Source: Amphiscolops sp. MND2022 (lineage: Eukaryota). From it: DNA of 64,000 bases. The notes under the pieces were generated by a model that worked only from the letters and a program-made list of their open reading frames with translations, had not been told where the DNA came from and did no database searches. A program made the position numbers and the translations under genes. The stretch is from assembly GCA_964187785.1 (NCBI GenBank), contig OZ076411.1:35588001-35652000 (forward strand), in the 5' to 3' direction. Within the stretch, counting starts at the first letter, position 1. Each line of letters opens with the position of its first letter. Shown one piece after another: positions 25,600-55,778 of this stretch.

Positions 25600-26172
25600 A
25601 GCAGTTGCTATTGTTGCGGCCAGCGTTACTGGTACCGTTTAAAATGTCATTTCTGCTATTCAACGATTTGATGGAGTCCTCAATTCTGGAGTATGTCAAT
25701 TCTGGAGTTGGAGCATCCTTGTTCAATCTAGTGAAGCGTTTGACAGGCTGCCGATCTTGTAGGATAAGTTTTCGATTAGACGAAAATTTCTCTCTGACTA
25801 TGTTCTGTGTCGCTTAGCCTCTTAACCAATCTATTCTCTAACTTGTTCGTGTTATCCTCGAAATCTCTTTCAGTTAGACTAGGGCTTTCTTCAATAAATG
25901 AGCTAATTGTTTCAACAACTTGAATATGTTAGTTTCTTTTAACCCGTTGGAAATATTTCGGTCCATTACTAAGCTCCTGTTCAAGTAGTACAAAAGGCAG
26001 AGTTATTGCTGCTAACGGCAAAAGAATGAATTCGAAGCAACTATCAAAACAAAAATTACTTGGAGATGGAAAATTCAAGACTTTGATTTACAAAATGAAG
26101 GACATGTTTAAGGTGAGATGCAAAATTATGATTTTCTCAATCCGGCTCCAGGTGTCTATACTTTACGCTACC
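25600..26172 (-). mobile_element. Truncated 5'UTR and gag start of the G1 Gypsy family
   Basis: Collinear with 54890-55425 (CTGGA(G/A)TTGGAGCATCCTTGTTC, CAGTTAGACTAGGGCTTTCTTC, CCGGCTCCAGGTGT.TATACTTTACGCTA) at ~75-80% identity. Confidence 0.85.
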
Positions 26173-27014
26173 TGGTATTTTGAACTACATTGGAAAATTA
26201 TTACACATGCAAGTCTCTGGGGCAACTTGCTCGCATTGGGGTGTCCAAACGGTTGGCCAGAGTGGTGACCTAAATCATTAGAAGCAACAGGTTATCTTAT
26301 TCATTAGAACTATAACAAAATTAGCGACCATGATTAAATAGAACATTAGCACTAAATTTTTCATGTGGAAAAGGCAGGCAACTCAACTTTAATTTGAATA
26401 GATATGGTGCATTTCGACATTTATCAGCAAGTTGTCCCAGTGGTCGACCCAGTACAAATAGATAGTGGATGGCTACTTTGGTACATTAAACTAGCTAAAT
26501 CAATGTGAATACATCATAATTTAGAGCGACAGTACTCAGTTATTATACTAAAGAGTATGTGAAAATATAATAACGCTTTCAGCGGTAATATTCAAGTGTA
26601 TTTGCTGGTGGGTTGTCGCAATGGTTGGCTCAGATCTCAAAGTTAATAATATTCGAAATTGCATCAGAATAGCATCATCATGGGTTTACATGTCTCATGA
26701 TCCTTCCATTAAGCTTCTTTTAGGCAGGGATTTTCACGTTATATTTCATTGTATGATTTGCACTATTGGATGTTCTAGTCGAGCAGCCAGACTGTCGTCC
26801 CAGGTTCTATCGACTGGTAAGGTGTATGGGACTGCTACGCAGCTTACTTAGCATATTAGCGCTAAAAGCCTATTGGTGAATTCATTTGGCCATTACTGTG
26901 CGCTTGTATTCACTGTTCTCGTCTAAACTGCACTCCAGTAAGCGCGCTAGTTGAAATAAATTCGCGCGCTGGCTGTTTGACTACAATTATACACTGTACT
27001 TGATGTTATTTACA
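26173..27014 (-). repeat. Gypsy G1-family LTR (3' LTR position)
   Basis: On the minus strand it starts TGTAAATAACATC and ends AAAATACCA. It is collinear with 55779-56631 at ~75-80% identity. Confidence 0.85.
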
Positions 27015-30100: not shown

Positions 30101-31685
30101 TTGTTTCACAAGGGGACAGGGACTATTCTTCCAACTAAGGGCAATGCGCTTCTTGATGTGAGCCAGTTGATCATCTCGGACACATTGGTGTTGCCACCTT
30201 TGGGTGTACGGCACGTCCTTGTTGCGTGTTTTCAACACATTCCGAGAAGCAGTTTGTTACTGAAGTCACCGAAGATACATGCCGCAGTTAATCTGATTTT
30301 TAGTCGGCGCTTCTTCGTAGAAAAACGCAAACTATAGTAGTGACTTTTTTAAGACCAACCAAGTGACAGATTTTATAAGCTTTATAGGCTGACTTGAATT
30401 AACACTAAATGCCACAGTACTTCTACTGGCACTTGAGACAGAGGTTAATTAGGCTTTTTTGAGATCCCCTTTTACATTTTGCGGCACTATGGGAACAAAA
30501 AAAATTTCAGACCAAAAAAATTTTGAAAAAAAATTTCAAAAAAAAGCTTTTTAAAATCATTTCCTCATGTGGTTACTGTAGAAGAGAATACTTGACACTT
30601 TGAAGACGTTTAGCTATTATTGAGCATAAGATATGGCGCCGACTTAAACCGTTCCCAGCTTGTTGCTATTTCTATTGAAGATTGCTTGGTAAGGCGAAGA
30701 AGCTGACCTGCTGATTGAATCGTCGAGTCTGTATATCGGTCAGTCTTCGACCACATGGGCTCACATTTCCTATATCGAGTGCCTTCGGGGCAAACTTCTT
30801 GCGACAGTTGCTCTGAACGCGTGTGGTGATGCCTTGAGGCGTACTTTCCTTCCTCCGCGAGTGTCATGAGTTTCTTCTGGAGTTCCTCAAGGTTTTGAAT
30901 TGTTCGGCTTATGAAAAGTCGGAACTGGTCTTTTGTTCAGGTTGTTTTTAGCCGGATACTATGTTGCAGTGTGATGAGTATTACACTGTGACATTATTCT
31001 TGGATCTGACCAATTACTTGTTAGAGTGTGGTCGATTGACATCCCCGGACTGCGAGGCAGCAAGTAATGAGTTCGAATCCTTACTCGAGGAGATCCGTAG
31101 GCGGAACTAGCGAGTCATGTCTTCGATCACAAACAGTTTCTCCTTTGTGTGGGATTCAGGCTTGCTTGACTGCCGGTTGAATTTGAACAGGGTGGTGCAG
31201 TTGGCAGCTATGGTCATGGTTCCTCGTCCGGTTTGTTATCCTGATGTCGACATGATGTTAAGTGGTGCAAAAGTTCCAAAGAAGGTTCTGTTGTCATAAA
31301 TTTTTTCGTGTCAGTCGTATGTATTCTTTGCAAAACTCGCTTCGGGAGAGCTTCTGACCAAAGACTGCCTGGAGAAGCTGAAATGTTAATATGTCGAATT
31401 GGAAGGTCTCTATGGATGACCCTCATTTTTGCCGTGGAACTCGTTGTATATCCATGGTAGTTCTGTTCGTACTGCCAGTATGGAAAATTCGAGCGGTTCC
31501 AGGAAGCGGCGTGGAGCGAGCAGAGGAGCAGCCTTCATTCCGACTGATTTAAAGCAATTGATTTGTGTAATTTTTAGTATTGCAATTTGTATTCATTTCT
31601 GTCTGTATTGTTATTGTATCTCGTGTTTCTTCTGGACCAATGGGTCCGTTCTTTGATCGAGAGAAGAGAAAATGGAATACGTTAG
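27120..31685 (-). pseudogene. Degraded post-integrase ORF region of Gypsy G1, env-like (inferred)
   Basis: The GTTAG TSD joins it directly to the post-integrase sequence at 48423. I found no pol motifs. Fragments include EFCKEYIRLTRKNL/YDNRTFFGTFAPL, ANCTTL, NNVT, EVCPEGTRYRKCEPMW and LTAACIFGDFSNKLLLGMC, i.e. Cys-bearing and rich in sequons. The 27.6-29.0 kb part may be a separate insert. Confidence 0.45.
30298..30664 (-). mobile_element. Non-autonomous Helentron/DINE-1-like element (HINE-like), copy 1
   Basis: Asymmetric subterminal inverted repeats AGTCGGCGC (30302-30310) and GCGCCGACT (30636-30644). It has an AACAAG end on the minus strand, T-rich insertion flanks and an ACTATAGT palindrome, and is homologous to 62083-62615. 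Confidence 0.65.
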
Positions 31686-32561
31686 TGTTGGCGCCAGTCA
31701 ATTGCAAGATCAGAAACTCAAATTCGAACGTGACTGATGATACTTATAACTCAAAATACTTAGAAAGTTTGTCAAGATTTTAGTTGGAAAATTTACAAGT
31801 TTCACCAGAAATAGGGCATACCCAAAAAACACCCCCCCCGTTTTTGAGAAACACTGGCTCAGTGACCCTGAAACTTAGCATGTATATACTAGAGGTGCTA
31901 ACTCAACTTCTCACTGGAAACATCCGACCCCGTATCCATCCTGAGTTCAGAGCAATTAACATCCAAAGTGACCTAGGTCGGCCCCACGAAAACCCGATTT
32001 TGATATACAAATTATTATGTGATTTTACCTTATGACCATGAAGGAAATTTAACTCTGTTGAAATTGGTGACATTTACAGTGTGTAAACATACTTTCTAAC
32101 CCACCTAAGAACCATGCCAAAACCACCACTTAGTTTGTTTACATAGCTAATAACTTCATTTTATGCTTTAAGTGTCATTTATTTATACCTCATATTTCAA
32201 CCTATATTTGTCGAACAATTGTAAACTAGTGCACCTTTACTAGATAGGCACAATTTGATTGGAAAGCTGTATAAAGTCGGGTCTCAGGACCACACGTATT
32301 CTCAATTCATTTCTTCACCTCTTGTCGACTTTTCGCCAAAGACTAAGGGCGACTAAGTTAGTTACTCTCAACTTGTGGTCAATTGGACGCGTTAAGAGAC
32401 AAAGAAAAAGTGCATTTCGGGATCATTGGATCCTACTAAGTCAATATACAGTCCTTTTAATCTAAGAAGCAAGCAGTGTTCGGTAACGATCCGCAGTGCC
32501 GAGCACCGAATTCAGGGTGGCGTAAAGTTTGGTCGATTGAAGGGATCAAGCAGCAGTTACA
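31686..32561 (+). repeat. B1 5' LTR (LTR A)
   Basis: Starts TGTTGGCGCCAGTC, ends GCAGTTACA, and is followed by a PBS. Confidence 0.95.
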
Positions 32562-32563
32562 TT

Positions 32564-32580
32564 TGGTCCTCCAACCGGGA
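32564..32580 (+). promoter_or_regulatory. Primer-binding site of B1 (tRNA-Tyr-like)
   Basis: TGGTCCTCCAACCGGGA lies 2 nt after the LTR and resembles the Bel/Pao-type PBS TGGTCCTTCGAGCCGGA. Confidence 0.75.
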
Positions 32581-32996
32581 CATCCTCAATTGGGCGGACA
32601 TATTCAATTGGGCGGACATCGTCAATTGGGCGGACAACTGGATGATCGTCTGATTGATACACAGCCAGAATAACATCGTGCGAACAAGTGAACGTGTACA
32701 GTGAACGACGATGGGAGATAATCTATACAAAACTGTGTTCTGCAAAGTGGTCACATCTGAGCTCTCCTCTGTGTTTAGTGTACTCTGAGAGTTTGGGCTA
32801 CTTCTGCAGACGCTGAATGATTGTATTCGAAGTGGTAATACTGGAAATTTTGGGTCACAGTGTACTCTGGGAGTTTGGACTATTGTGTACTCTGGGGTTT
32901 TTTTTTCTTCATCGGCTTGTTGGGAATTGCTTTCACAGCAGAATTTGGACTCCTTTGGTTAGTTAGTGTAGTCAGGGGTTTTGGGCTACTTCAAAA

Positions 32997-35900
32997 ATGG
33001 CCGATCCAAAGAAAATTGATTACAAAAGAATTGAAAACCATTTGAAGAATTCTATGGATAAGCCATAATGGGAGAGCAACATGAAAGCAATTAAAAACTT
33101 TGAGACAAAAATGGATGAATTACATGCTGAGCTGCGCAAAGCAGACGTAACGAAGGAAAAACTCGCACACCTTCTACCGAACCGACAAGACCTACTGCCT
33201 AGATGGAGGAGACTCGTCGGGGGCGAACACAGCACTCTTGAAAGCCAAGTATCAGCCAGATTGGTCGGATAATAAAGGCGACCGATTCTGCAGATATCGG
33301 AATGAATTATATTCCTTGGAAACACCACATAAAAACATTGGTCAGATGTTCACAATGATGCGGAGGAGAATGCCTAAAGAATGAAGGACAATTGAAGGAG
33401 TTCCTACAACTTCGAAACTCCAAAGAGAAATGTGATGAAAAACTTCAAAAAAACGAAAATGAAATCAATAAAAATCGGGATACTAATAGCAACTCAGAAA
33501 ATACAAAGCATTGGTAGAAACAAACGGAGAAACCCTCAAAAAGAGAGATGGAATTGTGGTCAAGTTGGATGAGTTGTTGAAACACAGTGGAGATACTTCA
33601 ATCTACAGTGACTTGCATCGCATGGAGGGAATTATGGCCCATGCCAAGGTGAATTGACAAGAGCAACAACTAAAGTCCCGCGACTGTTCTCCTCAGAAGA
33701 ATGCGAATGACGAAGTGGCACAAGATACCGATGGACCCTATTCGTTTGTCAATCGTTGTGTTAATGTGGTGAATTCGCTACCTGAAGAAAGAGATCAATG
33801 TGCAAGCAAGGCACATTCAATGGGCATCAGAACATCAGTTAGTTCAAAGTCAACTACTACAAAGCGGGTGATGTTCCTAGAACTGGAAGCAATGAAGAAA
33901 CAAAAAGAAATCGACGAACAACTAACTGCAAAGAAACGTCAAGCTGAGATCCGAAAGAAACACGACGAAATGGATAAACTCACAGAAGAGATCGCTAAAC
34001 TCGAAAAAGAAATGGAGAGGGCTAAATGAATCTCTGAAAAGGTAATGGAAATAGCCCGAGCGGGAAGTAGCCGAGCAAGTACAAGTTTGCGAAGCGTTTC
34101 CCCAAAACCGCTCTAAAGTGATCCGTTCGAAAAGGTACCTTCTTGGCTAGATCGAATCGAAGTTGACAACAAGCTAACGAACAATGGGAATGAGGAGCCC
34201 AGAATCGCACTAGCCAGCGAACCTATTCAACGACAATCCGGTGTATTGCCGCATAAACCGAAATCGTTTCAACCAGCTGCTAAGATGGCACATCCAATTG
34301 TAGCAAACGTGGGCAACTCGGGTAATCTCTTTGTCTCGAAGGTGGCTCCTGTAACGCTGAAGAAAGCTGCACCACAATATGTTCAGTTTGGAAATAGTTT
34401 ACCTCCGAATCAGCCAACAACGAACGACAAATATGAAAAATGATACGGTGCCACCACATGTTGCACCACCGTTAACCTCACTGCACCCCCACATAGTCAT
34501 TTCGGACCCACGAGAATCGAAAACATGAGTCTTCCAGCCAGTCTGCCGAACCTGAAGTTAGCAGAATTTTCAGGTGACCCATTGGAATGCCCGAGTTGTC
34601 GGGGTTGTTCCTCTCGACTGTACATGCTGCGAACATTGACACCAGTCTCTAGATAAATCACCTCAAAACGCTGGTCACTGGAAAGGCAAAGGAAGTAATA
34701 GCTGGACTAGGCTACACTGGAGACATGTATGATGTTGCATACAATACCTTGGTTGCGCAATTTGGGAGACCACAAGTGGTAGTTAACGCACAACTGAGAC
34801 GAATTTACACCTTTCCACCAGTGAAAGCGTACGACTCTGTAGCATTGGTCAAATACTCAAGAATAGTTTCAAGTTGTGTACAAGTTTTGACGCAGATGAA
34901 CTATGTTGGAGACTTGCAGTCAGATGGCGTCCTGAGTAGTGCGACCAGAAATCTGCCATTGAACATGAAAACAAAATAGTTGACTTACACGAGACAAATT
35001 GCCAACTACTACAAGGGGCTGGAAGCGTTCAGCGCATGGTTGCAAGAGATATCAGCGGTGCAGAAAGATGTTCTCATGACAGGCAACCTTAACGCAGACA
35101 GATCAAAATGGACAGGTAAAGACAAGCCAAAGAACTCTACGTTCTCAACCTTTGCTGACGACAGTGTCGTGAAGAAGACTGGTCATGATTGTCCATTGAA
35201 AGATGGTAAACATCCCTTGTGGAAATGCGATACGTTTCTGAAGATGACCTGTCAAGCACGATATGAAAAATTCAAAGAATTGAAACTCTGCTTTTGTTGC
35301 TTGGCTGGAAAACATGTGGTGAAAAATGGCACTTACAAAGCGTGTGGAGTCAAAGGATGTAGCAGGCGGCATCATCGATTGCTACATCGCGAGGCAAACG
35401 AACGGCCGAAAGAAAGTGGAGTGGAAGACCCACAACGGAAAGCGGAGGCAAATTCAGCATTTTGCTCAATGAAGAGCAGTGGAACTTTGCCACTTATACC
35501 TGTCATCATTCAAGTTGGCAAAAGGCAAGAATCAACCTTGGCTCTGTATGACTCTGAGCGAGCCTTTGGAGCGAGCCTATCGTTCATAGACAAGACATTA
35601 GCTGACGAGTTAAACGCTGACGGTGAAGAAGTTGATCTGAGTGTGGCTGGAATACATGGGACAAATGAAGTCAAATGTGAGTGACTCACGGTGGGAATTC
35701 GCGGCAAGACAAGGAGCGACACACACCACATGACAGTCTACACGCACCCAAACATAGACGCCGGATCAAAGATATACGACTATCGGGAACTCAAACATGC
35801 CTACCCCATTTGTCAGTATTAAGCGAAGAAACATTGAAGCTCAAAGATGCAAAAATGATAATGGGACAGAACTGCTACCACATACATCAGCCTGGAGAAT

Positions 35901-37326
35901 AAAAAAGTGGCACGAATGGTGAGCCGTGGGCAGTGAAAACGAAACTTGGATGGACCCTCTGTGGACCACTTCCACAGCAAGAATCTGTGCAGATGGCTGC
36001 ATCTTGCGTAACAACTTCTGAAGATGATGCTCTGGCAGAACAGATTAAAACTTGGTGGGACATTGAATCCTATGCGTCTCGCTGCCATGTATCTGGAAGG
36101 TCCAAGGAAGATGAGAAGTCGTTGCAGATGCTAGAACAAAACACAAAGTTCGATGGTGAAAGATATGAGGTTGGTCTTCTCTGGAAAAGAAATGACCCCT
36201 TCTTGCCAAACAATTATTTTTCGGCATTGAGCGAAATGACGTCGTTAGAGTATAGACACGAAAAGATTCCAGAGTTGAAGAAACTCTATCAAGACACCAT
36301 TAAAGTAGATGTTGAGAAGGAATTCGTCAGAATCCTAAAGCAAGAAGAATTGGAAGCTACAAAATTTGCAAGTCAGTGGTATGTTCCACATCACCCAGTA
36401 GAAGATCCAAACAAACCAGGAAAAGTGAGGCCAGTGTGCAACGCAGCTTCCAAGGTCCGTAGAATTTCCTTGAACGATAACCTCTTGACTGGGCCGGACC
36501 TACTGCAGAATCTGATTGGAATAATCTTCAAGTTTAGAGAACAAAAGGTCGCCATCACTGCTGACATTGAAGCGATGTTCCTACAAGTGAAAGTACAGTC
36601 GGAAGATTGTAAAGTGTTGAGATTTCTACGGAGAGACAAAACAAATTAATTCGCTAAAAAGTAGATGTATGGAAGACATATCTTCGGAGCTAAAAGTTCC
36701 CCCAACATGCGCCAATTATGCCCTGCAACAAGTTGCAAGAGATAACACAGGAGTCCCCTCAAATTACCAAACTGATAAGGCGAAACTTCTATATGGACGA
36801 CTTTGTAAAGTCTGTTCCCAGCGCGGAGCAGGATAATGAAATCTACAAATTGTTGAGAGCGGTGTTGGCAAGAGAAAGTTTTCAATTAACAAAATGGATT
36901 AACAGCTGCGAACAGACTATGACGTCTATCGACCAAGCAGACAAGTCACCGTCCTCTAGTTAAACTTTTGAAGCTGAACCGACTTCTCCATCAATCTTGG
37001 GACTGCAATGGAACGTTGACGCAGACAATCTGGAAGTCTGCAGAGGCATGCAGAAGGAGATACCGGTGTAGATAACGCAGAGAGCGGTGTTATTCCAAGT
37101 TTCAGCTGTACTCGACCCTCTGGGAATAGTGTCTCCTTTCACCATAAAAATGCGACAGCTACTGAAATCAATATGGAAGGAGAACGGACAGTCGTAGGAT
37201 AAAGAACTGAATGAAGAAAATCGACATGAATTCAAGAAATGGGAATCAGAGATAATACATGTGAACCAAATGGCCCTCAAAAGAACATATTTCGAGTCAG
37301 GTGTGAACAAAGTAGATCTACATATC
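32997..37326 (+). pseudogene. pol: B1 gag-protease-RT (left part; stops and frameshifts)
   Basis: DUF1759 (VAQFGRPQVVVNAQLRRIYTFPPVK), Cys/His knuckles (LCFCCLAGKH, CGVKGCSRRHHRLLH), protease LYDS..GASLSF, and RT WYVPHHPV, NDNLLTGPDLLQNL, ADIEAMFLQV and FYMDDFVKS. Confidence 0.92.
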
Positions 37327-38182
37327 TGTAACGACTGCTTGATCCCTTCACTTGACCAAACTTTACGCCGCCCTGAATTCGGTGCTCGGCACTGCGGATC
37401 GTTACCGAACACTGCTTGTTTCTTAGAATAGATGGACTATATCTTGACTTAGTAGGATCCAATGATCCCGAATTGCACTTCTTCCTTGTCACTTAGTAAC
37501 TTAGTCGCCCTTAGTCTTTGACGAAAAGTCGAAAAGAGGTGAAGAAATTAATTGAGAATCGAAATGGTCCTAAGACCCAACTTGACTACAGCTATTCAGT
37601 CGTTAAAATCCCTATCTAACAATGGTATACATATCGTTTACAGTTCTACAGTAAATACAAGCAAATATAAGTAAGTATAAAGAAATGACACTTAAAGCAT
37701 AAAATGAAGTTATTGGCTAAGTAAACAAAGAATGTGGTGGTTTTGGCATGTTGGTCAGGTGGGTTAGAAAGTATGTTTACACAATGTAAATATCACCAAT
37801 TTCAACAGAGTTATCTTTCCTTCAAGGTCATAAGGTAAAATCACATAATAATTTGTATATCAAAATTGGGTTTTCATGGGGTCCGACCTTGGTCTTTTTG
37901 GGTGTTAATTGCTCTGAACGCAAGATAGATACGGGCTTAGGTTTATTGAACGAAAAGTTAGTGTAGCACCACTACTAAATGTGTGCCAAGTTTCGAGGTT
38001 GTTGAATGAGAGGTTCACCCGAACGGGGAGGGGGGTGGTCCAATTTTACACGAGGCCATTTTTGCTAAAAATTGTAATTTTCAGACTAGAATCCTGATAA
38101 AGTTTCTAAGCGTTTTGAGTTGTGAGTTTCATCAGTCACGTTCGAATTTGAGTTTTCGTCTCGCAGTTGACTGGCGCGAACA
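37327..38182 (-). repeat. B2 3' LTR (LTR C)
   Basis: On the minus strand it reads TGTTCGCGCCAGTC...GCAGTCGTTACA. Identity to LTR D is ~96% by eye. Confidence 0.95.
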
Positions 38183-41100
38183 TCGCCGGCCCTGTTTTTC
38201 TCCCGAAAAACACTTTCGTAGAACATGGGTGCCAGTTTCACTACTGGTTTTTTAGTTTGCCATCTTTTGTCACAACAGTCGCAGATCTGACTCTGCCATC
38301 GCTTCCTTCTTGTACTTCCAACACTCTCGCCATTTTGTAGTTGGACCGCTTTACATTTTCATCCACGACCCAAACCAAATCATTCACTTTCAATTGTCTC
38401 ACATCATCTTTGCTCCACTTATTACGCAGATTCGATTCCAGCAGATATTTTTTAGTCCATCTGGTCCAGATCTTATTTGAATAAGCTTGCGACACTCGGA
38501 ATACTCGTCTCAAATCTTTGTAGCGTTGAGCGCCCGGTAGGAATGGTGTGGCTAAATTTGCTTATCCCAATAAGAAATGATTTGGTGTCAAAGCTTCCAA
38601 GTCATCTGGATCATCACTAACACATGTCAGTGGTCTAGCATTCAACGTCTGCTCTACTAGGCACATAGTTGTTATGAGAACGTCGTCTGTCGAGAATTGT
38701 CCATTCAATACAGTTATCATCGCTTTTTTACAACTTCGTGCCAATCGTTCCCAGATTCCTCCAAAATGAGGGGCTCCAGGAGGGTTGAATTTCCACTTGA
38801 TGTCATTTTAAGCTAATGACATCTCAATGTGTGACAGATTCCACGCATTTAGACAATCTCTCATTTCTTTGGCTGCACCCAAGAAGTTCGTCCCATTATC
38901 GCTCAAAATTGTAACAAGTTTGCCTCTCCGGGCAATAAACCGTGTGATAGCAGTTAAGCAGGTTTCTGCTTCCAAAGATGGAACAACTTTGCTATGTACT
39001 GCTCTAGTTGTCGAACAGGTGAAGCGACAGCACCATCTCTTCATAGTCTTACGCATGAACTTCACTTCGAAGGGACCAAAATAATCAACTCCAGTGTTGA
39101 AAAAGGGGGACACTCGTTCCTGTAATCTTTCTCGTGGTAAATCAGTCATTAATTGATGCTCCCGCTCGTTGCTTTCTATGTTTAACACATTTCGCTTTCA
39201 CGCTCCTCAGAGCGTTTCGCAATCCAATCTTCCAGTATTCTTGTCTTAGAACACTTTTGACGTATTCTGTGCCTTCATGAAAAGTCGCTTGATGTGCATC
39301 TTCAATCAGCTTGATGACAACATAATGCTTTGCTGACAACAAGGTTGGGTGTTTGATTTCATACCTGACTTTGAATGTTGCAGTCGACCTTGTAGTCGTA
39401 GCAACCCATTTTCGTCCAGAAACGGCAACAGTTCATTCAATTGATCTGAAGCCGACAACGGCTGCCCTTTGTAGATTTTCTCGTAGGCATCATGAAAACT
39501 TTCCTTCTGACAACGCTTCAAAACTGCCAGTTTTGCTGCATTGAGTTCTCCAACTGTCAGAATTCCTTCGGATTTCTTTTTCCTCCATCTAAGGCAGTAT
39601 GACAGCACTCGAATCATTTTCTTGAAAAACCCAAATCTTTCCCATTTGAATGCTGGTTCCATTACCGCAGCTTCCATGACTTAGGCCAGGCGTCTTCTGT
39701 CTCGGTGAGCCACGCCGGCCCTGTGAGCCACTCACTTTCGTTAGGGCTTCAACTGTCATTCCTCGAGTTCGAACGTCAGCAGGATTCAGTTTTCCTTCAA
39801 AAGGACGCCATTGATCGATAGTTGAATTATCGAGAACTTCAGCAACGCGGTTTGCCACAATGACCTGTTGTTTGTTGTTGCTTGCGTGAAGCCATTGTAG
39901 GACCGTTGTTGAATCTGTCCAATGTATAATTCGGTCTATTTCAAAATCATGTTCTCCCAAAATAAGCTCTCGCAGTCTTACTCCAAAAACTGCTGCCTGC
40001 ATCTCCAACTTAGCCACTGTCATGTTTCGTATTGGAGCTACTCTATATTTTCCCATCACAAGGCAACTTCGCCATTTTCTTGCCTTCTCAAATTAGCAAC
40101 CATGCACATTGCTTCCAACGAAGCGTCTGAGAAGATATGTAGATCTACTTTGTTCACACTTGACTCAAAGTATGTTCTTTTGAGGGCCAGTTGGTTCACA
40201 TGTATCATCTCTGATTCTCATTTCTTGAATTCATGTCGATTTTCTTCATTCAGTTCTTTATCTGTCCGTTCTCCTTCCATAGTGTTTTCAGTAGCAGTCG
40301 CATTCTTATGGTGAAAGGAGACACTATTTCCAGAGGGTCGAATACAGCTGAAACGCGGATTAACACCGCTCTCTGCGTTATCTACACCGGTATCTCCTTC
40401 TGCATGCCTCTGCAGACTTCCAGATTGTCTGCGTCAACGTTCCATTGCAGTACCAAGGTTGATGGAGAAGTCGGTTCAGCTTCAAAAGTTTTACTAGAGG
40501 ACGGTGACTTGTCTGCTTGGTCGATAGACGTCATAGTCTGTTCGCAGTTGCAAATCCATTTTGTTAAGTGAAAGCCTTCTCTTACCAACACCGCTCTCAA
40601 CAGTTTGTAGATTTCAATATCCTGCTCCGCGCTGGGAACAGACTTGACAAAGTCATCCATATAGAAGTTTAGCCCTATCAGTTTGGTAATTCGAGGGGAC
40701 ACCTGTGTGTTATCTCTTGCAACTGGTTGCAGGGCATAATTGGCGCATGTTGGCGAACTTTTAGCTCCGAAGATATGTCTTCCATACATCTACTTTTTAA
40801 GGGTTAATTTGTATTGTCTCTCCATAGAAATCTCAACACATTACAATCTTCCGGCGGTACTTTCACTTGTAGAAACATCGCTTCAATGTCAGCAGTGATG
40901 GCAACCTTTTGTTCTCTAAACCTGAAGATTATTCCAATCAGATTCTGCGGTAGGTCCGGCCCTGCCAAGAGGTTATTGTTCAAGGAAATTCCACGGAATT
41001 TGGAAGCTGCGTTGCACACTCGCTTCACTTTTCCTGGTTTGTTTGGATTTTCTACTGGGTGATGTGGAACATACCCTTGTCTTCCTAATTTAGTGGCTTC

Positions 41101-44100
41101 TAATTCTTCTTGCTTTAGGATTCTGACGAATCCCTTCTCAACATCTACTATAATAGTGTCTTGATAGAGTTTCTTCAACTCTGGTTTCTTTTCGAGTCTA
41201 TACTCTAACGACTTCATTTGGCTCAAGGCCGAAGAATAATTGTTTGGCAAAAAGTGGTCATTTTTTTCCAGAGAAGACCAACTTCATATCTTTTACTACC
41301 AAACTTTGTATTTTGTTCTAGCATCTGCAGCGCCTTCTCATCTTCCTTGGACCTTCCAGATACATCGCAGCGAGACGCATAGGATTCAATGTCCCACCAA
41401 GTTGTAATCTGTTCTGCCAGAGCATCATCTTCAGAAGCTGTTACGCAAGATGCAGTCATCTGCACAGCTTCATGCTGTGGAAGTAGTCCACAGAGGGTCC
41501 ATCCAAGTTTCGTTTTCACTGCCCACGGCTCACCATTTGTGTCGCTTTTATATTCTTCAGGCCGATGTATAGGGTAGCAGTTTTGTCACAAAATATTTTT
41601 CACATCTTTGAGCTTCAATGTTTTTTCGCTTAGTACCGACAAATGGTGGTAGGCATCTTTGAGATCCCGATAGTCGTATATCTTTGATCCGGCGTCTATG
41701 TTTGGGTGCGTGTAGACTGTCATGTAGTGTGTGTCGCTCCTTGCCTTGCCACGGATTCCCACGGTGAGTCGTTCACATTTCACTTCATTTGTCCCATGTA
41801 TTCCAGCCACACTCAGATCAATTTCTTTACCGTGAGCATTTAATTTGTCAGCTAATTCCTTGTCTATGAACGATAGGCTCGCTCCAGAGGCTCGCTCAGA
41901 GTCATACAGAGCCAAGGTTGATTCTTGCCTTTTGCCAACTTGAATGATGACAGGTATAAGTGGCAAAGTTCCACTGCTCTTCATTGAGCAAAATGCTGAA
42001 TTTGCCTCCGCTTTCCGTTGTGGGTCTTCCACTCCACTTTCTTTCGGCCGTTCGTTTGCCTCGCGATGTAGCAATCGATGATGCCGCCTGCTACATCCTT
42101 TGACTCCACACGCTTTGTAAGTGCCATTTTTCACCACATGTTTTCCAGGCAAGCAACAAAAGCAGAGTTTCAATTCTTTGAATTTTTCATATCGTGCTTG
42201 ACAGGTCATCTTCAGAAACGTATCGCATTTCCGCAAGCGATGTTTACCATTTTTCAATGGACAATCATGACCAGTCTTCTTGTCGACACTGTCGTTAGCA
42301 AAGGTTGAGAACGCAGAGTTCTTTGGCTTGTCTTTACTTGCCCATTTCGATTTGTCTGCGTTGGGATTGCCTGTCATGAGAACATCTTCATGCACTGCTG
42401 CTATCTCTTGCAACCGTGCGCTGAGCGCTTCCAGCCCCATGTAGTAGTTGGCAATTTGTCTCGTGTAAATCAACCTTTTTGTTTTCATGTTCAATGGCAG
42501 TTTTCTGGTCGCACTATTCAGGACACCTTCTGATTGCAAATCACCAACATAGTTCATCTGCGTTAGAACTTGTACACAACTTGAAATTATTCTTGAGTAT
42601 TTGACCAATGCTACAGAGTCGTACGCTTTCACTGGTGGAAAGGTGTAAATTCGTCTCAGTTGTGCGTTTACTACCACTTGTGGTCTCCCAAATTGCGCAA
42701 CCAATGTATTCTACGCAATATCATACATGTCTCCAGTGTAGCATAGTCCAACTATTACTTCTTTTGCCTTTCCAGTCACCAGCGTTTTGAGGTGATTCAT
42801 CTTCAAACTGGTGTCAATGTTCGCAGCATGTACAGTCGAGAGGAACAACCCCGACAACTTAGCCCATTCCAATGGGTCACCTGAAACTTCTGCTAACTTC
42901 CATTTCGGCAGACTGGTTGGTAGACTCATGTTTTCCATTATTGTGGGTCCGAAAGGACTATGTGGGGGTGCAGTGAGGCTAACGGCGGTACCGTATCATT
43001 TCTCGTCTTGTTGTTCGGTGTTGTTTGATTTGGAGGTATTATGGTTCCAAACTGAACATGTTGTGGTGCAGCCTTCTTCAGCGTTACCGGAGCCACCTTC
43101 GGGACAAAGAGACTACTCGAGTTGCCCACGTTTGCTACTGTTGGCTGTGCCATCTTGGCAGCTGGTTGGAACGATTTCGGTTTATGCGGCAATACACCGG
43201 ATTGTCGTTGAATAGGTTCGCTGGCTAGTGCGATTCTGGGCTCCTCATTCCCATTGTTCGTTAGCTTGTTGTCAACTTCGATTCGATCTAGCCAAGAAGG
43301 TACCTTTTCAAACGGATCACTTTAGAGCGGTTTTGGGGAAACGCTTCGCAAACTTGTACTTGCTCGGCTACTTCCCGCTCGGGCTATTTCCATTTCCTTT
43401 TCAGAGATTCGTTTAGCCCTCTCCATTTCTTTTTCGAGTTTAGCGATCTCTTCTGTGAGTTTATCCATTTCGTCGTGTTTCTTTCGGATCTCAGCTTGAC
43501 GTTTCTTTGCAGTTAGTTGTTCGTCGATTTCTTTTTGTTTCTTCATTGCTTCCAGTTCTAGGAACATCACCCGCTTTGTAGTAGTTGACTTTGAACTAAC
43601 TGATGTTCTGATGCCCATTGAATGTGCCTTGCTTGCACATTGATCTCATCGATGCAACTCACTGTAGATTGAAGTATCTCCACTGTGTTTCAACAACTCA
43701 TCCATCTCGGCCACAATTTCATCTCTCCTTTTGAGGGTTTCTTCGTTTGTTTCTACCAATGTTTTGTAATCCTCTGAGTTGCAAAGTGTATCACGATTTT
43801 TATTGATTTCATCTTCGTTTGTTTGAAGCATTTCATCACATTTTTCCTTGCAGTTTTGAAGTTGTTGGAACGCCTTCAACTGTCCTTCAATCTTTAGGCT
43901 CCGCATCATTGTGAGCATCTGACCAAAGTTTTTTGTCGTGTTTCCAAGGAATCTAATTCAATTCGATAACTGCAGAATCGGTCGCCTTTATTATCCGACA
44001 ATTCTGGCTGATACTTAGCTTTCAAGAGTGCTGTGTTCGCCCCGACGAGTCTTTTCTATCTAAGCAGTAGGTCTTGTCGGTTCGGTAGAAGGTCTGCGAG

Positions 44101-44260
44101 CTTTTCTTTCGTTACGTCTGCTTTGCGCATGCATTTCATCCATTTTTGTCTCAAAGTTTTGAATTGCTCTCACGTTGCTCTCCCATTGTGGCTCGTCCAT
44201 AGAACTCTTCAAATAGTTTTCAATTCTCTTGTAATCATTTTTCTTTAGATCAGCCATTTT
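38183..44260 (-). pseudogene. pol: B2 gag-pol (decayed); longest open piece is 41586..42704 (372 aa, gag/protease)
   Basis: Same motifs as B1, plus RNase H KCRVAP-like / KLEMQAA, WTDSTTVLQW and integrase [16 protein letters not shown] and EALTPNHFLLG. Confidence 0.92.
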
Positions 44261-44696
44261 TGAAGTGGCCCAAAACCCCAGAGTACACTAACTAACCAAA
44301 GGAGTCCAAATTCTGCAGCGAAAACAATTCCCAACAAGCCGATAAAGAAGCCCAACAACCCCAGAGTACACAGTAGCCAAAACTCCCAGAGTACACTGTA
44401 ACTCAAAATTTCCAGTATTACCACTTCGAACACAATCATTCAGCGTCTGCAGAAGTAGCCCAAACTCCCAGAGTACACTAAACACAGAGGAGAGCCCAGA
44501 TGTGACCACTTTGCAGCACACACAGTTTTGTATAGGTTACCTCCCGTCGTCGTTCACTGTACACGTTCACTTGTTCGCACGATGCTATTCTGGCTGTGTA
44601 GCAATCAGACGATCATCCAGTTGTCCGCCCAATTGATGATGTCAGCCCAATTGATTATGTCCGCCCAATTATTGATGTCCGGGTCGGCGGACCATA

Positions 44697-45537
44697 TGTA
44701 ACGACTGCTTGATCCCTTCACTTGACCAAACTTTACGCCACCCTGAATTCGGCGCTCGGCCCTGCGGATCGTTACCGAACACTGCTTGCTTCTTAGATTA
44801 AAAGGACTGTATATTGACTTTGTAGGATCCAATGATCCCGAAATGCACTTTTTCTTTGTCACTTAGTAACTTAGTCGCCCTTAGTCTTTGACGAAAAGTC
44901 GAAAAGAGGTGAAGAAATGAATTGAGAATTGAAATGGTCCTAAGACCCAACTTGACTACAGCTATTCAGTCGTTAAAATCCCTATCTAAAAATGGTATAC
45001 ATATCGTTTACAGTTCTACAGTAAATATAAGCAAATATAAGTAAGTATAAAGAAATGACATTTAAAGCATAAAATGAAGTTATTGGCTAAGTAAACAAAG
45101 AATGTGGTGGTTTTGGCATGTTGGTCAGGTGGGTTAGAAAGTATGTTTACACAATGTAACTATCACCAATTTCAACAGAGTTATCTTTCCTTCAAGGTCA
45201 AAAGGTAAAATCACATAATAATTTGTATATCAAAATTGGGTTTTCATGGGTCCGACCCAAGTCTTTTTGGGTGTTAATTGCTCTGAACGCAAGATAGATA
45301 CGGGCTTAGGTTTTGTGTAGCACCACTACTAAATGTGTGCCAAGTTTCGAGGTTGTTGAATGAGAGGTTCACCCGAACGGGGAGGGGAGTGGCCCAATTT
45401 TACACGAGGCCATTTTTGCTAAAAATTGTAATTTTCAGACTAGAATCTTGATAAAGTTTCGAAAGCTTTTGAGTTATAAGTTTCATCAGTCACGTTCGAA
45501 TTTGAGTTTCTCGTCTTGCAGTTGACTGGCGCCAACA
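44697..45537 (-). repeat. B2 5' LTR (LTR D)
   Basis: On the minus strand it reads TGTTGGCGCCAGTC...GCAGTCGTTACA and is followed by the PBS. Confidence 0.95.
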
Positions 45538-45542
45538 ATATC

Positions 45543-47536
45543 TTTTCAGACGCTTCGTTGGAAGCAATGAGTATGGTTGCTTGTTTGAGAAAGCAAGAAA
45601 ATGGCGAAGTGGCTTTTGTGATCGGAAAATGTAGAGTAGCTCCAATACGAAACATGACAGTGGCTAAGTTGGAGATGCAGGCAGCAGTTTTTGGAGTAAG
45701 ACTACGAGAGCTTATTTTGGGAGAACATGATTTTGAAGTAGACCGAATTATACATTGGACAGATTCAACAACGGTCCTACAATGGCTTCACGCAAGCAAC
45801 AACAAACAACAGGTCATTGTGGCAAACCGCGTTGCTGAAGTTCTCGATAATTCAACTATCGAGCAATGGCGTCCTTTTGAAGGAAAACTGAATCCTGCTG
45901 ACGTTCGAAATCGAGGAATGACAGTTGAAGCCCTAAAGGAAAGTGAGTGGCTCACAGGGCCGGCGTGGCTCACCGAGACGGAAGACGCCTGGCCTAAGGC
46001 GCCTGAAAAAATACCATTTAGCTTCCGAGAAGAGCCTGAACCAGTCATGGAAGCTGCGGTAATGGAACCCGCATTCAAATGGGAAAGATTTGGGTCTTTG
46101 AAGAAAATGATTCGAGTGCTGTCATACTGCCTTAGATGGAGGAAAAAGAAATCCTAAAGAATTCAGGCAGTTGAAGAACTCAATGCGGCGAAACTGGCAA
46201 TTTTGAAGCGTTGTCAGCAGGAAAGTTTTCATGATGCCTACGAGAAGATCTCCAAAGGGCAGCCGTTGTCGGCTTCAGATCAGTTGAATAAATTTTTGCC
46301 GTTTCTGGACAAAAATGGGTTGCTACGACTAAAGGTCGCCTGAAACATTCAAAGTCAAGTTATGAAATCAAACACCCAGTCTTGTTGTCACCAAAGCATT
46401 ACGTTGTCATCAAGTTGATTGAATATGCCCATCAAGCTATTTTTCATGAAGGCACAGAATACGTCAGAAATGTTTTAAGGCAAGAATACTGGATTATTGG
46501 ATTGCCTAACGTTCTGAGAAGCGTCAAAACGAAATGTGTTAAATGTAGAAAGCAACGAGCATGAGTGTCTCAACCATTCATGGCTGATTTACCACGAGAA
46601 AAATGCAGGAACGAGTGTTTCCCTTCACCAACACTGGAGTTGATTATTTTGGTCCGTTTGAAGTGAAGTTCCTGCGCAAGACTATGAAGAGATGGTGCTG
46701 TCTCTTCACCTGTTTGACGACTAGAGCAGTACACATCGAAGTTGTTCCATCTTTGGAAGCAGAAACCTGCTTAACTGCTATCACACGCTTTATTGCCCGG
46801 AGAGGCTACAATTCTGACAGATAATGGAACGAACTTCGTGGGTGCAGCCAAAGAAATGAGAGATTGTATAAATGCATGGAATCAGTCAGACATTGAGACG
46901 TCGCTAGCTCAAAAGGACATAAAGTGGAACTTCAACCCTCCAGGAGCCCCTCATTTTGATAGGAATCTGGGAACGATTGGTTCGAAATTGTAAAAAAGCG
47001 ATGATAGCTGTATTGGATGGACGATCCTTGACAGACGATGTTCTCATAACAACTATGTGTTTAGTAGAGAGGACGTTGAACGCTAGACCACTGACTAGTG
47101 TTAGTGATGATCCAGACGACTTCGAAGATTTGACACTAAATCATTTATTGGGAAGGGCAATTTTAGCGACCCCTTTCCTACCAGATTCTCAACGCTACAC
47201 GGACTTGGGACGGGTATTCAGAGTATCACAAGCTTATTCAGATATGATCTCGATCAGATGGGCTAAAGAAAATTTGCCGGAGTGGAACGTGCGTAACAAA
47301 TGGAACGAAGATGATGTGAGACAACTGAAAGTGAATGATTTGGTTTGTGTCGTGGATGCAAATGTGAAGCGGTCCAACTACAAGATAGTGAGAGTATTGG
47401 AAGTACACGAAGGAAGCGTTGGCAGAGTCAGATCTAAGACTGTTGTGACAAAAGATTTCAAACTCAAAAGACCAGTAGTGAAACTGGCACCCATAATCTA
47501 CGAAAGTGTTTTTCGGGAGAAAAACAGGGCCTGCAA
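45543..47536 (+). pseudogene. pol: B1 RNase H-integrase (right part)
   Basis: Resumes at IFSDASLEA after the TSD, then [41 protein letters not shown] and RPVVKLAP. Confidence 0.93.
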
Positions 47537-48422
47537 TGTTGGCGCCAGTCAATTGCAAGATCAGAAACTCAAGTTCGAGCGTGACTGATGATACTTATAA
47601 CTCAAAACGCTCAGAAAATTTGTCAAGATTTTAGTTGGAAAATTTACAAGTTTCACCAGAAATAGGGCATACCCAAAAAAACACCACCCCCCCGTTTTTG
47701 AGAAACACTGGCTCAGTGACACTGAAACTTAGCATGTATATACAAGAGGTGCTAACTCAACTTTTGACTAGTAACACCCGACCCAGTATCTATCCTGAGT
47801 TCAGGGCAATTAACACCCAAAATGACCTAGGTCGGACCCCATGAAAACCCTATTTTGATATAGAAATTATTATGTGATTTTACCTTAAGAACTTGAAGAA
47901 AATTTGACTTTGTTGAAATTGGTGATATTTATATTGTGTAAACATACTTTCTAACCCACCTAATGAGCATGCCAAAACCACCACCTAGTTTGTATACATA
48001 GCTAATAACTTCATTTTATGCTTTAAATGTCATTTATATATACCTCATATTTCAACTCATTATTACCGAATAATTGTAAACGAAATGTACACCTTTACTA
48101 GATAGGCACATTTTGATTGGAAAGCTGTATTAAAGTCGGGTCTCAGGACCACACATATTCTCAATTAATTTCTTCACCTCTTTTCGACTTTTCGCCAAAG
48201 ACTAAGGGCGACTAGGTTAGTTACTCTCAACTTGTGGACAGTTGGACGCGTTAAGAGACAAGGAAGAAGTGCAATTCGGGATCATTGGATCCTACTAAGT
48301 CAAGATACAGTCTCTTTTTATTCTAAGAGGCAAGCAGTGTTCGGTAACGATCCGCTGTGCCGAGCATTGAATTCAGGGCGGCGTAAAGTTTGGTCAATTG
48401 AAGGGATCAAGCAGCCGTAACA
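47537..48422 (+). repeat. B1 3' LTR (LTR E)
   Basis: Preceded by PPT GGGAGAAAAACAGGG (47515-47529). It reads TGTTGGCGCC...CCGTAACA, with ~92-93% identity to LTR A by eye. Confidence 0.95.
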
Positions 48423-51400
48423 GTTAGTAAGAAATGAAGAGGGCTTCCGAAGTTACTCGAAGGAATTTCATCGATGAAGCCTTCAGTAATTCTGCTTTAT
48501 TCTGCTCATCGAATGCGAAAGTAATCCAGTCGTAGGAACTAGAAAAAGTAAGTAGCCTTCGTGTGCCATAAAATAAGAGTTTTTTCAAGTAAATTGACAT
48601 AATCGCGTTTCCAGTTAGATGAGGGGGTTACTACGTAGGTTGTATTTTCCTTTTCGGGAAGAACTAGCTTCCGGGTTTGGGTTGGGTTCTGGGTAATGAC
48701 TTTCTTCCATGTGGTTCTATTCAGTTGGTATGTCCGGAACTATGTCCTCTATGTGTTTTCTGATCTAACGACGTTATCGTGCTTGATGATTGTGAGCTCA
48801 TCATTCGGGTGGCTAATATTAGGCATAACAACGTGTTCTAATCCTGATTGCCATGCAAGGGTTTAAAGGTTGTCGTGGAGGATTACAATCTCGTTATCGG
48901 GTTGGAAATCTTTCGCTTGGACTTGGGTGTCGAGTACGCGGTCCTTGGTGAGCAAGAGTCCAGGCGTATCCTGTGGAGAAGTTGAGTTCTGTTCGTTTGT
49001 AATTTGCGTATCAGATTTATGTTGTTCGGGAGGGTTTTCACGACTACGTAACGTCCCGTCCACTAATACACTCGGAATGGTAGCTTTGACCCTTGGTCAT
49101 TTGTTTGTGGATGTAAGGCGTAGCAGTAATCGTTGGTTTCCAAAGGGTGACCTGAAGCTTTCCTATCGTAGTATTGCTTCTACTGTATATACGAGTGTAC
49201 AAGGTGCTTGCTCACTGATTCGTTGATCAGTTGATTTTCCGGAGAACTTCTTCCCCAGCGTTTGCTGTTGGTGTCTTGGGGAGATACAGTTTAAGCTAAA
49301 CTTCCAGTCAAAGATCTTGTAGGGTCTTCTGCCGTGGAACACCCTACTGGGCTGGCAGCCCAGTTCTGAGTGCTATGTGGTGTTATAATTGAGCGTTGGG
49401 ATGGGCACAAATTGGTACCACATAATTCTCCGCTCCCCTGTGGAGATATTGAGGGCTTCTTTCAATGAGGCATGGCAACGCTCCTAGATGCCCATGGGGT
49501 GTGCAAGTTTGGTCGTGGCGTGTCTCAATTGGATGCCCAGGACGTGAGTTGTGTCAGCCATTACTTCGGGCATAATTTGGGTTCCTTTGTCCGTGATGAT
49601 AATTGTTGGAGATACGCGTGCTGTGTCATGTAGTTTATTAGTGCTACAGTCCTTGCGTCAATTTAGGTAACGCAGTTTGTGAATAAGTACAGTGAGAAGA
49701 CGTCCATGGCGGTGACAATGGCCGCGTAGCCGTTTGATGGGTCGTCGAATGGGACAATGTCCATCTGTAAGGCAACTTCTGGTCCCATTGTGAGTTTGGA
49801 CGTAATATTCGTTGGTGGGTGAGTAGTCTGTTGTCCGTTCGCTTAGTTTGCACGTATTTCATGCAGTGACTGATGTGCCGGGTGATCCTCGCTGCTAGTC
49901 CTGGGAAGTAATACTTTTCTCGGCATTGTTGCATTACTTTTTTGATCCCGGGATGTTTGTCGTTCATTCCATGATGAGTATTGATAAAAGAGTATACAAG
50001 CTGTTCGGACAGGAGCATCTGTAAGTATCTGATTTTCTCTGTCTCCCCGAAATATTGTCGGTATAACAGCCCGTCTTTAAGAATAATTCGGGATCCTTGG
50101 GTCGTGTAGTGCAGTGCTCTCTTGTCAGTTGCCATGAGTTGTTCACGGTAGGTTCCTTCAGGAGGCGCAGCTTGTATTTTCGTAAGATTGTGTCTTGATC
50201 TTGTTGGTGTCTCATCTCGGTCGGTGGGCCATTTTCGGGAGTGGCGTATCGTTTGTGTTTGACGATAAGAAAGCCATTGTCAGGTGTGGTGTCCTCTGAA
50301 ATTACAGTGTCTGTTGGCGTTTCTTGGGTGTCGGTTCCTAATAGTTTCTATCGGGCTCGCTGCTTTCGTTCCCAGATCTGTTCCTCAGTTTCAATGTCGT
50401 CTTCGGGGAGGATATGGAACAGTTCCCCTTCAGTGACATCAGATGACTGTAGGTGTACCTCAATCGGTGATGTTTGAATGTCATCTCGTATTAGGAGTTC
50501 GATCTTTTCCTTGGGGTCGAGGTCAAGACGCTAGAGGAAGTCCGCTGTACTTTTCATCCTGCCTGGGACATGGACGATGGAGAAATTGAACTTCAATACA
50601 AAGTCGCATGCGTTTAGTAGAACTGAAGATATTATTTTTGTTCGTAAGAATCTTGTCACCGACTTGTTGTCGGTCAGGACAATGACTGGTTCATTCGATC
50701 CCCACAGGATGTGGATGTACTCGATGAAGGCAGAATATTTTGTCAGGAACTCCTTTGCGTATATGGACCTTTTGATTTGGGGTGATGAGAAGGTTTTGAA
50801 CCCAGAAAGCAACTGATGCGTATGTCTTTTTAATTGATGTGATTTTCTCTTCGACTTTTCCCTCAATCATTTGGGTGTAGCCGTCTTTTTTGAAGTTTGC
50901 GTCAGTCATTAGTCTATATTACCTATTAGGTTTGTTTTGACCATTGGGTTTGTTTTAACCATAGGCCACAGGCGTTCTCTAGTGATTTGGTAATGTTCTT
51001 GAAGTTGTCCAGGATTTAGTTCGTGACTATGATCGGCTTCTCTGGTTTCACTATACCTTTTCATGTCGATTTCGCCAAAAGGAAAACGAGAAGCATATTC
51101 GAGTCAATGAATTTCAATTTCGCTTTCGTGGAAGAAGTTTTTGCCAATTTGAAATTGAAATTGGCCGAAAAAATGACTTTCGCCAAATTAGAAACAGAAA
51201 ATTCAAAAACAAGAACAGAGATTATCAAGGACCTCAGAAATCAAAACTCCACCAGATTTTCGCCCAATTTAATTTTCCCGTAATAGTGGTCGACATAATA
51301 AGCTAATCAATTTTTTGTGAGAAATTGAGTTTCGCTACGGCGGAAATGATGTTCGGTCATGCAAAATTGATTCTCTTTTTGGCAAAGTTGAGTTGCACGT

Positions 51401-54400: not shown

Positions 54401-55425
54401 GCGCCGTTGCCACTGATTGGGTTTTGACGTAACTTCTGCGCAATCCTACTATGACGTTTTAAGGTTGGTTTATTTGTGGAGTCCGTCATGTTGTGGAAAA
54501 TTTAGAGTGCGTTTCCCCTTAATAGGGAGTGGAAGTAGTAGAGTTTTTCTTCCCCGTTTTATTCGGGTGGACTTTTGAACTTGTTTGGTACATTTCTTTG
54601 AAATTCTTGAACTTGTCTGTCTTGCCGTCGAACGTAGGCATCGTTGTAGAGAGTGCTTTTGGCAAGCGGTGCAGATGGTTGTTCCATCTACTAGCAGCAG
54701 ATAAGGATTCGAGTAGTTTCTCGATAATTTCATGTGACCGCCTCTGGTTTAGATGCTGCAGGCTTGATGAACGTGCGTAGGGAGTAAGGTTGGGGTCATT
54801 AGTGACTCCTGTCACCATGTTGATGCCAGCGATGTTGGTATCGTTTAAAGTGTCATTTTCGATATTCAACAAGTTTTGTGGAGTCCTCCTAAGTGCCACT
54901 TCTGGAATTGGAGCATCCTTGTTCTAGGGAAGCGTTTGACAGGTTGTCAACTTTGGAAAGTAAATTTTCGGTTAGACGGATTCCTAGACCTTCTATATTC
55001 TACCTTATTCGTTACATCTCCGAAATCTCTCTCAGTTAGACTAGGGCTTTCTTCAACAATTGAGCTAGATGTTTCAAATACTTCGTGATCACTTGGCGGG
55101 TCTCTTCGCAACTTTCTTGATTGGGTTTTCTCTGGCATGGTTAGGGAGAAAGAGTTCGGCTTGGCAACAATTCAATTGAATATGGTAGTTTCTTTTAAAC
55201 CGTTGGAGATAATTCGGTCTATTACCACGCTCCTGTTCAAGTAGTACAGAAGGCAGAGTTATTGCTGCTAACAACAAAATAATAAAGTCGATGCAATTGT
55301 CAATACAAAATTACTTGCCGATTGAAAAGTCAAGACTGTGATTCACAAAATGAAATACCGGTTTAAGTTGAGATGGAAAATAATGATTTTCTTAACCCGG
55401 CTCCAGGTGTTTATACTTTACGCTA
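48423..55425 (-). mobile_element. pol: Ty3/Gypsy G1 internal region (gag-PR-RT-RH-IN), decayed
   Basis: gag MPTFDGKTDKF with degenerate knuckles (CGHPGNLLRNC, CETCGKMGN), protease AFIDSGA, RT LDYYQAYH, YLRLAQGLSRS and QYIDDIG, RNase H MTDANF, IYAKEFL and LTDNKSVTRF, and integrase HPGIKKVMQQCREKYYFPGL. Confidence 0.93.
51031..51495. mobile_element. ~465-bp foreign insertion between G1 RT and RNase H
   Basis: It interrupts the RT-connection coding sequence, is flanked by direct GACTAT repeats (51025-51030 and 51496-51501), and carries internal TTCGCCAAA / TTGGCCGAA-type motifs. Confidence 0.55.
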
Positions 55426-55778
55426 GACAGCAGGAAAATCTCGCCCGTGGTTTCACATCGTGTTCAAGCCACCGTCCTTTCTGAAGCGGGAAAATACTAG
55501 TAAGGTAGGCTTCATCAGGACTAGGCGTTCCGCGTCATCTAACATTTAAGGAAAAGAGGGATTCGACTTCCTGCCGCATCCCGATTCGGTGTCCACCTCC
55601 TCCTAATCCCCCGCCAATTCGAGACACCGAACCAATGTTGGCACTGAAATTTATGAGCTCCTGAAGCGGGAAAAAGGAATGAAATTTACAACGAAGAAAA
55701 TGCTAATCTTTTGATCAGACTGAACTTAATGAAGGTGGGCTTTCAAAGTACCTAAATTAAACGACAAACACGGTTAAC

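Follow-up and report, generated by a model that had tools for sequence, protein, structure and literature searches.

How do two retrotransposons that inserted separately come to share both tracts of near-identity and the same inactivating mutations? The question is raised by a 64,000-nucleotide stretch of the genome of Amphiscolops sp. MND2022 (GenBank assembly GCA_964187785.1, contig OZ076411.1, positions 35,588,001 to 35,652,000 of the forward strand; hereafter the window, with positions counted from its first letter), in which a decayed Bel/Pao long terminal repeat (LTR) retrotransposon, B1, holds a second decayed Bel/Pao element, B2, in antisense orientation. The two have very probably undergone repeated non-allelic gene conversion between their inverted arms, long after both insertions, and the evidence for this and for the competing explanations is set out below.

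The outer element, B1, occupies 31686..48422 on the plus strand and is bounded by TG...CA LTRs (5' LTR 31686..32561, 3' LTR 47537..48422) and by a perfect 5-bp target duplication, GTTAG (31681-31685 and 48423-48427), with Pfam matches to DUF1759, Peptidase_A17 and DUF5641. B2 lies on the minus strand at 37327..45537, with its 5' LTR at 44697..45537, its 3' LTR at 37327..38182 and its own perfect 5-bp duplication, ATATC (37322-37326 and 45538-45542), and it matches DUF1759, RVT_1 (below the curated cut-off), Peptidase_A17 and rve (E 1.3e-6, also below cut-off). Its insertion point falls in the ribonuclease H (RNase H) region of B1, which it splits, and because it lies antisense inside B1 it is an inverted partner to both B1 halves; comparison of the window with itself returns four related LTRs and three long inverted matches. 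The order DUF1759, DSG region, RVT_1, Peptidase_A17, rve, DUF5641 corresponds to Gag, protease, reverse transcriptase (RT), RNase H and integrase between LTRs, and this order together with the Pao/BEL motifs (PMC554778) places both elements in Bel/Pao. The YMDD motif of RT and the DAS motif of RNase H were read by eye, and the protease DS...G motif is split by a 12-bp insertion. Under the triple Cys-His box definition for Bel/Pao Gag given in PMC554778, the third box (CX4CX3HHX3H) is complete and the first and second each lack one Cys, in B1 and B2 alike.

The LTRs of B1 differ from each other by 7.9-8.0% and those of B2 by 4.2-4.3%, while B1 and B2 LTRs stand 17-18% apart; that the B1 pair is the more diverged is what the nesting order predicts. 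In U3 the elements show up to 36 differences per 100 columns, in keeping with a sequence-only reading of this locus, which had described the U3 regions as strongly different. B1 and B2 are separate Bel/Pao insertions of the same family, B2 being a different subfamily mosaic, and the intact layout suggests an arrangement with no net inversion. Near the start of U3 (31690-31775) the B2 LTRs differ at several family-polymorphic sites, which hints at conversion from other copies.

Across 6,491 internal sites B1 and B2 differ at 491, and segments were scored against 5,000 permutations of the mismatches. The first tract, T1, lies in gag and pairs 33791-34268 of B1 (plus strand) with 43647-43170 of B2 (minus strand) at 3 mismatches in 478 sites, a fourth mismatch at 34269 falling just past it; its upstream end in B2 adjoins a deletion of 168 bp that B2 alone carries (the homologous stretch of B1 is 33621-33790). 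The second, T2, extends from the Cys-His boxes to the protease and pairs 35221-35565 of B1 (plus strand) with 42232-41888 of B2 (minus strand) at 1 mismatch in 345. Both had been reported as near-identical by the sequence-only reading, and both are borne out here: their segment scores, 355 and 304, lie above all permutations, the maximum of which was 220. A third tract, T3, lies outside the range of that reading, in the right-hand (RNase H) piece of B1 (45632-45909, plus strand), and matches 40045-39768 of B2 (minus strand) at 3 mismatches in 278 (permutation P=0.003), with 10 shared rare alleles. Outside T1-T3 the elements differ at 484 of 5,390 sites (9.0%). The additional claim that neighbouring sequence differs by more than 10% holds to the right of T1 (13%) and fails in the remaining flanks of T1 and T2 (7.7-9.8%; flank mean 9.0%).

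All three lesions that had been described as shared are present in both elements. T1 holds a gag stop (PKPL-stop; B1 34114-34116, B2 43324-43322), and T2 holds the 12-bp protease insertion (at about 35553-35567), with 60 bases between anchors vs 48 in 53 of 53 other copies, such that the motif reads DSERAFG in B1 and DSERASG in B2. The third lesion is an RT stop (EIPV-stop; B1 37069-37071, B2 40384-40382) in an identical run of 91 bp, which by itself does not reach significance (P=0.35). The stop belongs to an RT region (36647..37094, plus strand) where a scan of alleles finds shared rare ones interleaved with private ones and where two more stops are shared (B1 36647 and 36662, corresponding to B2 40806 and 40792); this region may represent older or shorter tracts. 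Each element carries many stops of its own (11 in B1, 6 in B2), and the shared stops, thus in the minority, resemble passengers. A further shared stop stands at 47586, at the end of pol and within the 3' LTR.

Other copies of the family provide the comparison. The family has at least 122 motif-bearing places (217-442 first-look candidates), and 58 other copies were taken from the genome, of which 38 and then 53 were scored; L100 and L104 (internal duplications) and L101, L106 and L108 (divergent or rearranged) were left out of the 53-copy counts. In the 38-copy set, rare alleles common to B1 and B2 reach 61, 27 and 36 per kb in T1, T2 and T3 vs 4.8 outside, and alleles private to a single copy fall from 33 and 30 per kb outside to 0-4 within. 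Beyond T1-T3 a further 15 doubletons are common to the pair, every one of them in the left arm, vs a median of 1 and a maximum of 7 for 253 old pairs, which suggests older or shorter events, the carriers of the RT stops among them.

Shared lesions might also be expected if B1 and B2 belonged to a recombinant lineage that was already defective and was mobilised in trans, or if B2 were a recombinant daughter of B1 RNA, and the family is indeed strongly mosaic, as template switching would produce. The sequence-only reading had offered trans-mobilisation as a candidate explanation and had proposed a search for the lesions at unlinked loci. In that search none of 53 other copies had the protease insertion, none of 47 the RT stop at 37069 and, of 49 in each case, none the stop at 36647 or the stop at 36662. 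The gag stop does occur elsewhere, in 2 of 51 copies, as a defective lineage would allow, but these two carriers are unrelated to the pair in T1. Exact 26-29-base patterns round the three lesions match twice each in 1.07 Gb, in all cases within B1/B2. Outside the tracts, B1 and B2 fall in different clades.

Timing bears on the same alternative more directly. The LTRs of one element are identical at insertion, and sequence inherited from before the insertion of B2 should have diverged about as much as the B2 LTRs, or more. Pooled, T1-T3 differ at 7 of 1,101 sites, or 0.64% (95% confidence interval 0.26-1.31), against 4.3% for the B2 LTRs (P=1.6e-13), a divergence equivalent to about 15% of B2's age; a value so far below that of the LTRs points to transfer after insertion.

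The LTRs themselves tell the same order of events. Among 827 columns of the four-LTR comparison, 7 group the two 5' LTRs against the two 3' LTRs and 1 groups them crosswise. Five of the 7 fall within 116 bp (32403-32518), where both 5' LTRs carry a rare allele (frequency 0-0.07 among 56-61 other LTRs) and both 3' LTRs the common one. These delimit a further tract, T0, in U5 of the B1 5' LTR (32398..32534, plus strand), shared with the B2 5' LTR (44860-44724) and holding 5 rare shared alleles and 3 residual mismatches. Divergence within the tracts is 0.3-2%, as against about 9% elsewhere. Within 160 columns B1/B2 show 6 such sites. Among 47 other old-element pairs the count does not exceed 3 in such a span, or 5 in total, and a nested inverted pair on C7 has the 5'-LTR grouping in 0 of 849 columns. 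Since five rare alleles occur in both 5' LTRs and are absent from each element's own 3' LTR, their transfer appears to post-date insertion.

A defective lineage should have left tracts at least as diverged as the B2 LTRs (4.2%), against the 0.64% found, and the four lesions other than the gag stop should not be missing from every other scored copy; alleles carried by 5' LTRs and not by 3' LTRs are, moreover, impossible through one reverse transcription, given established LTR biology. With lesions essentially private to the pair and tracts much younger than the B2 insertion, trans-mobilisation is scarcely probable at all.

The resemblance could instead be an artefact, in that assembly or polishing cross-talk, or an amplification chimera, would make the arms look alike. 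A family of more than 100 copies offers scope for it, and tract lengths of 280-480 bp seem to resemble short-read fragment sizes. Cross-talk would nevertheless have to erase about 16% divergence in T1, beyond what is generally expected of read mis-mapping, and the LTR sharing joins sequences 17% apart rather than each element's own LTRs at 4-8%. In a large family it should pull sequences towards common alleles, whereas the alleles shared here are private to the pair. Of the 10 residual mismatches, nine involve an allele private to a single copy, which also speaks against cross-talk, and the interleaving of shared and private alleles in RT is a poor fit to polishing. Only a small chance is left to an artefact of this kind.

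If conversion between B1 and B2 did take place, its direction in T1 may be read from trees and distances. B1 and B2 are sisters (support 1.0) in the trees of T1 and T2 and stand apart in four flank trees. Within T1 the copy nearest to B1 and to B2 is L099, at 8%, with all others 13% or more away, and the T1 tree places L099 with the two elements (support 0.99). In the flank right of T1, B2 alone groups with L099 (0.86) and B1 joins another group. Seven copies belonging to this group lie 8-10% from B1 in that flank and 15-17% from it within T1, where they differ from each other by 4.5-10.7%. B1 leaves its own subfamily in T1 and joins that of B2, and B2 is therefore the probable donor: B2 sequence appears to have replaced T1 of B1 despite a divergence of about 16%. 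T1 breaks off at the 168-bp deletion of B2, which B1 did not acquire. For T0 a transfer from B1 to B2 might tentatively be proposed. Gene conversion across the inverted arms, one of the three candidates of the sequence-only reading, is supported by the significance of the tracts, the rare alleles, the trees and the four-LTR test.

Real exchange might also have taken another form, either paired crossovers (two successive inversions) or conversion of both copies by a third copy or by complementary DNA. Inverted arms are able to cross over, and other loci of the B1/B2 family show inverted duplications with shared flank. Reciprocal swaps, however, move alleles and do not make arms identical, and a third donor should match the tracts, whereas the nearest other copy is 8% off in T1 and 5% in T2 and T3, and a direct search with T1 gave no match above 90%. 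Exchange of either kind has a very slight probability. Mutagenic repair was considered as the cause of the high density of shared alleles in T1 and was rejected, as much of that density is a rare gag variant also present in L099. CpG transitions account for 0 of 73 shared alleles vs 14 of 345 private ones, and weak-to-strong over strong-to-weak changes number 21/29 among shared alleles vs 40/87 and 52/75; these are given as counts, with no significance claimed.

Several observations count against conversion between B1 and B2 and have to be set beside the evidence in its favour. Tracts and alleles were read from the assembly sequence alone. Young unlinked copies of the family are mosaic, and their identical stretches run far longer (scores above 3,000); identity tracts by themselves consequently prove nothing. 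The 53 scored copies are a sample of the 122 or more motif-bearing places, the exact lesion patterns would miss diverged carriers, and the gag stop recurs in the two copies mentioned above. The tracts T0-T3 show no significant difference in residual divergence (P=0.18), so that different ages for these tracts are not shown. Correlations of flank affinity failed to point to a donor, whether in T1 (rho 0.10, P=0.5) or in T3, and changed sign from one side of T2 to the other. Finally, no clean second case of conversion was found in this genome, in which other inverted near pairs were sought by eye among the listed 100 of 122 and 100 of 104 motif matches and two were seen.

Under gene conversion, a break in one arm would have been mended with 100-500 bases copied from its inverted partner at a distance of 3-12 kb, with a resolution that leaves no net inversion. 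Damage already accumulated in the donor would be copied along, and the stops and the 12-bp insertion found in both elements would then be passengers. In T1, copying from B2 to B1 probably stopped where the 168-bp deletion of B2 breaks homology. The repair pathway itself is not observable in sequence, and break, copying and resolution are inferred. Several events are likely, given that there are tracts to either side of the insertion and that some shared alleles are interspersed with private ones.

B1/B2 is a new example of an already known process; it has no apparent function for host or elements, and the accepted picture is unchanged. Its value is as a well-controlled natural record of ectopic conversion, in which the nesting orders the insertions, two LTR pairs serve as clocks and more than 50 copies polarise the alleles. 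It indicates that copies may share inactivating mutations without descending from a defective lineage, and that a divergence of about 16% was probably no bar to conversion. A bolder idea, which is doubtful at present, is that antisense self-nesting creates a small double palindrome, a persistent hotspot at which conversion runs in both directions, able to transfer some 480 bases across about 16% divergence and to spread null mutations between host and guest. Were this general, nested pairs of the same family would distort retrotransposon dating and trees in a systematic and measurable way, and would serve as natural assays of the divergence that ectopic repair tolerates.

There are several systems with which the locus may be compared. 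Non-allelic gene conversion between Alu pairs was reportedly described by Aleshin and Zhi in 2010. Linked Alu copies separated by less than about 10 kb have non-diagnostic mutations in common and are less diverged in places (PMC6598467, PMC8230782). B1/B2 resembles them in the mutations shared between close, linked copies and in the local drop in divergence, and differs in that its partners are 8-kb LTR elements, antisense-nested, with coding tracts of 140-480 bp that carry null lesions. Conversion of LTRs has been described on the human Y, with maximum tracts of 14-450 bp (PMC4921805), and in plants (PMC7251063); the accessible passages of these reports share with B1/B2 a patchwork of donor segments, a preference for linked donors and a distortion of LTR dating. 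They concern LTRs, whereas B1/B2 appears converted also in gag, protease, RT and RNase H, with transfer between the 5' LTRs of two elements.

The palindromes of the Y (PMC3723533) likewise have inverted arms that exchange by conversion and rarely invert, but those arms are more than 99.9% identical with multi-kb tracts, while the arms of B1/B2 are about 9% apart, stem from two insertions and are patchily homogenised. LTR autoinsertion in plant Gypsy and Copia elements (PMC6911290) also places a copy inside an older family member and leaves a 5-bp target duplication; conversion between guest and host element is not described in the passages of that survey. The Bel/Pao element Sinbad (PMC554778) has the domain order and motifs of B1 and B2, both of which differ from it in being decayed and in having two degenerate Cys-His boxes. 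In the literature covered, which excludes subscription journals, no title or abstract opening on conversion between a nested element and its host was found.

Elsewhere in the genome, two inverted pairs were considered as replicates and rejected. The pair on C2 (62.19 Mb; L123 5958-9302 and L035 8894-5368) is a complex rearrangement whose arms share 565 bp of non-element flank; their divergence is mostly 0-5% within the first 1.9 kb and mostly 4-10% past that point. It looks like an inverted duplication rather than two insertions made independently. The pair on C5 (12.98 Mb; L124 1535-7433 and L126 2684-8568) is one element duplicated back-to-back and inverted, with about 340 bp of flank shared and a fairly even divergence of about 3%, and it too looks like an inverted duplication rather than two independent events of insertion. 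On C7 (71.34 Mb; L034 984-8077 with L121 3971-6568) a 6-kb element is nested antisense, with target duplication GTCCG; the guest has LTRs of the same family and a largely unrelated interior, and LTR transfer was not seen in this pair. A direct pair on C8 was rejected as a comparison case, being a 99.8% duplication. Tandem internal duplications of 2-4.5 kb, 97.6-99.6% identical where compared, occur in L100, L104 and L127/L128 and in motif clusters on C6, C9 and C12. A number of young copies within L051-L068 are mosaics of one another, and pairs of them that are 5-7% apart overall have multi-kb near-identical stretches, as expected from template switching.

The remainder of the window holds further repeats. 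Direct repeats at 25612-27014 and 54818-56631, 69-86% identical and both starting TGTTG, flank B1/B2 and also bracket minus-strand matches to RVT_1 (51649-52095) and to an integrase zinc-binding domain (49644-50279); they possibly represent an older element that hosts the B1/B2 nest. A 2,057-bp unit stands in tandem at 2786-4841 and 4843-6898 with 99.7% identity, either a recent duplication or an assembly effect. A 177-bp self-inverted repeat (90%) lies at 588-764, and a separate RT fragment (RVT_1) at 60492-60947.

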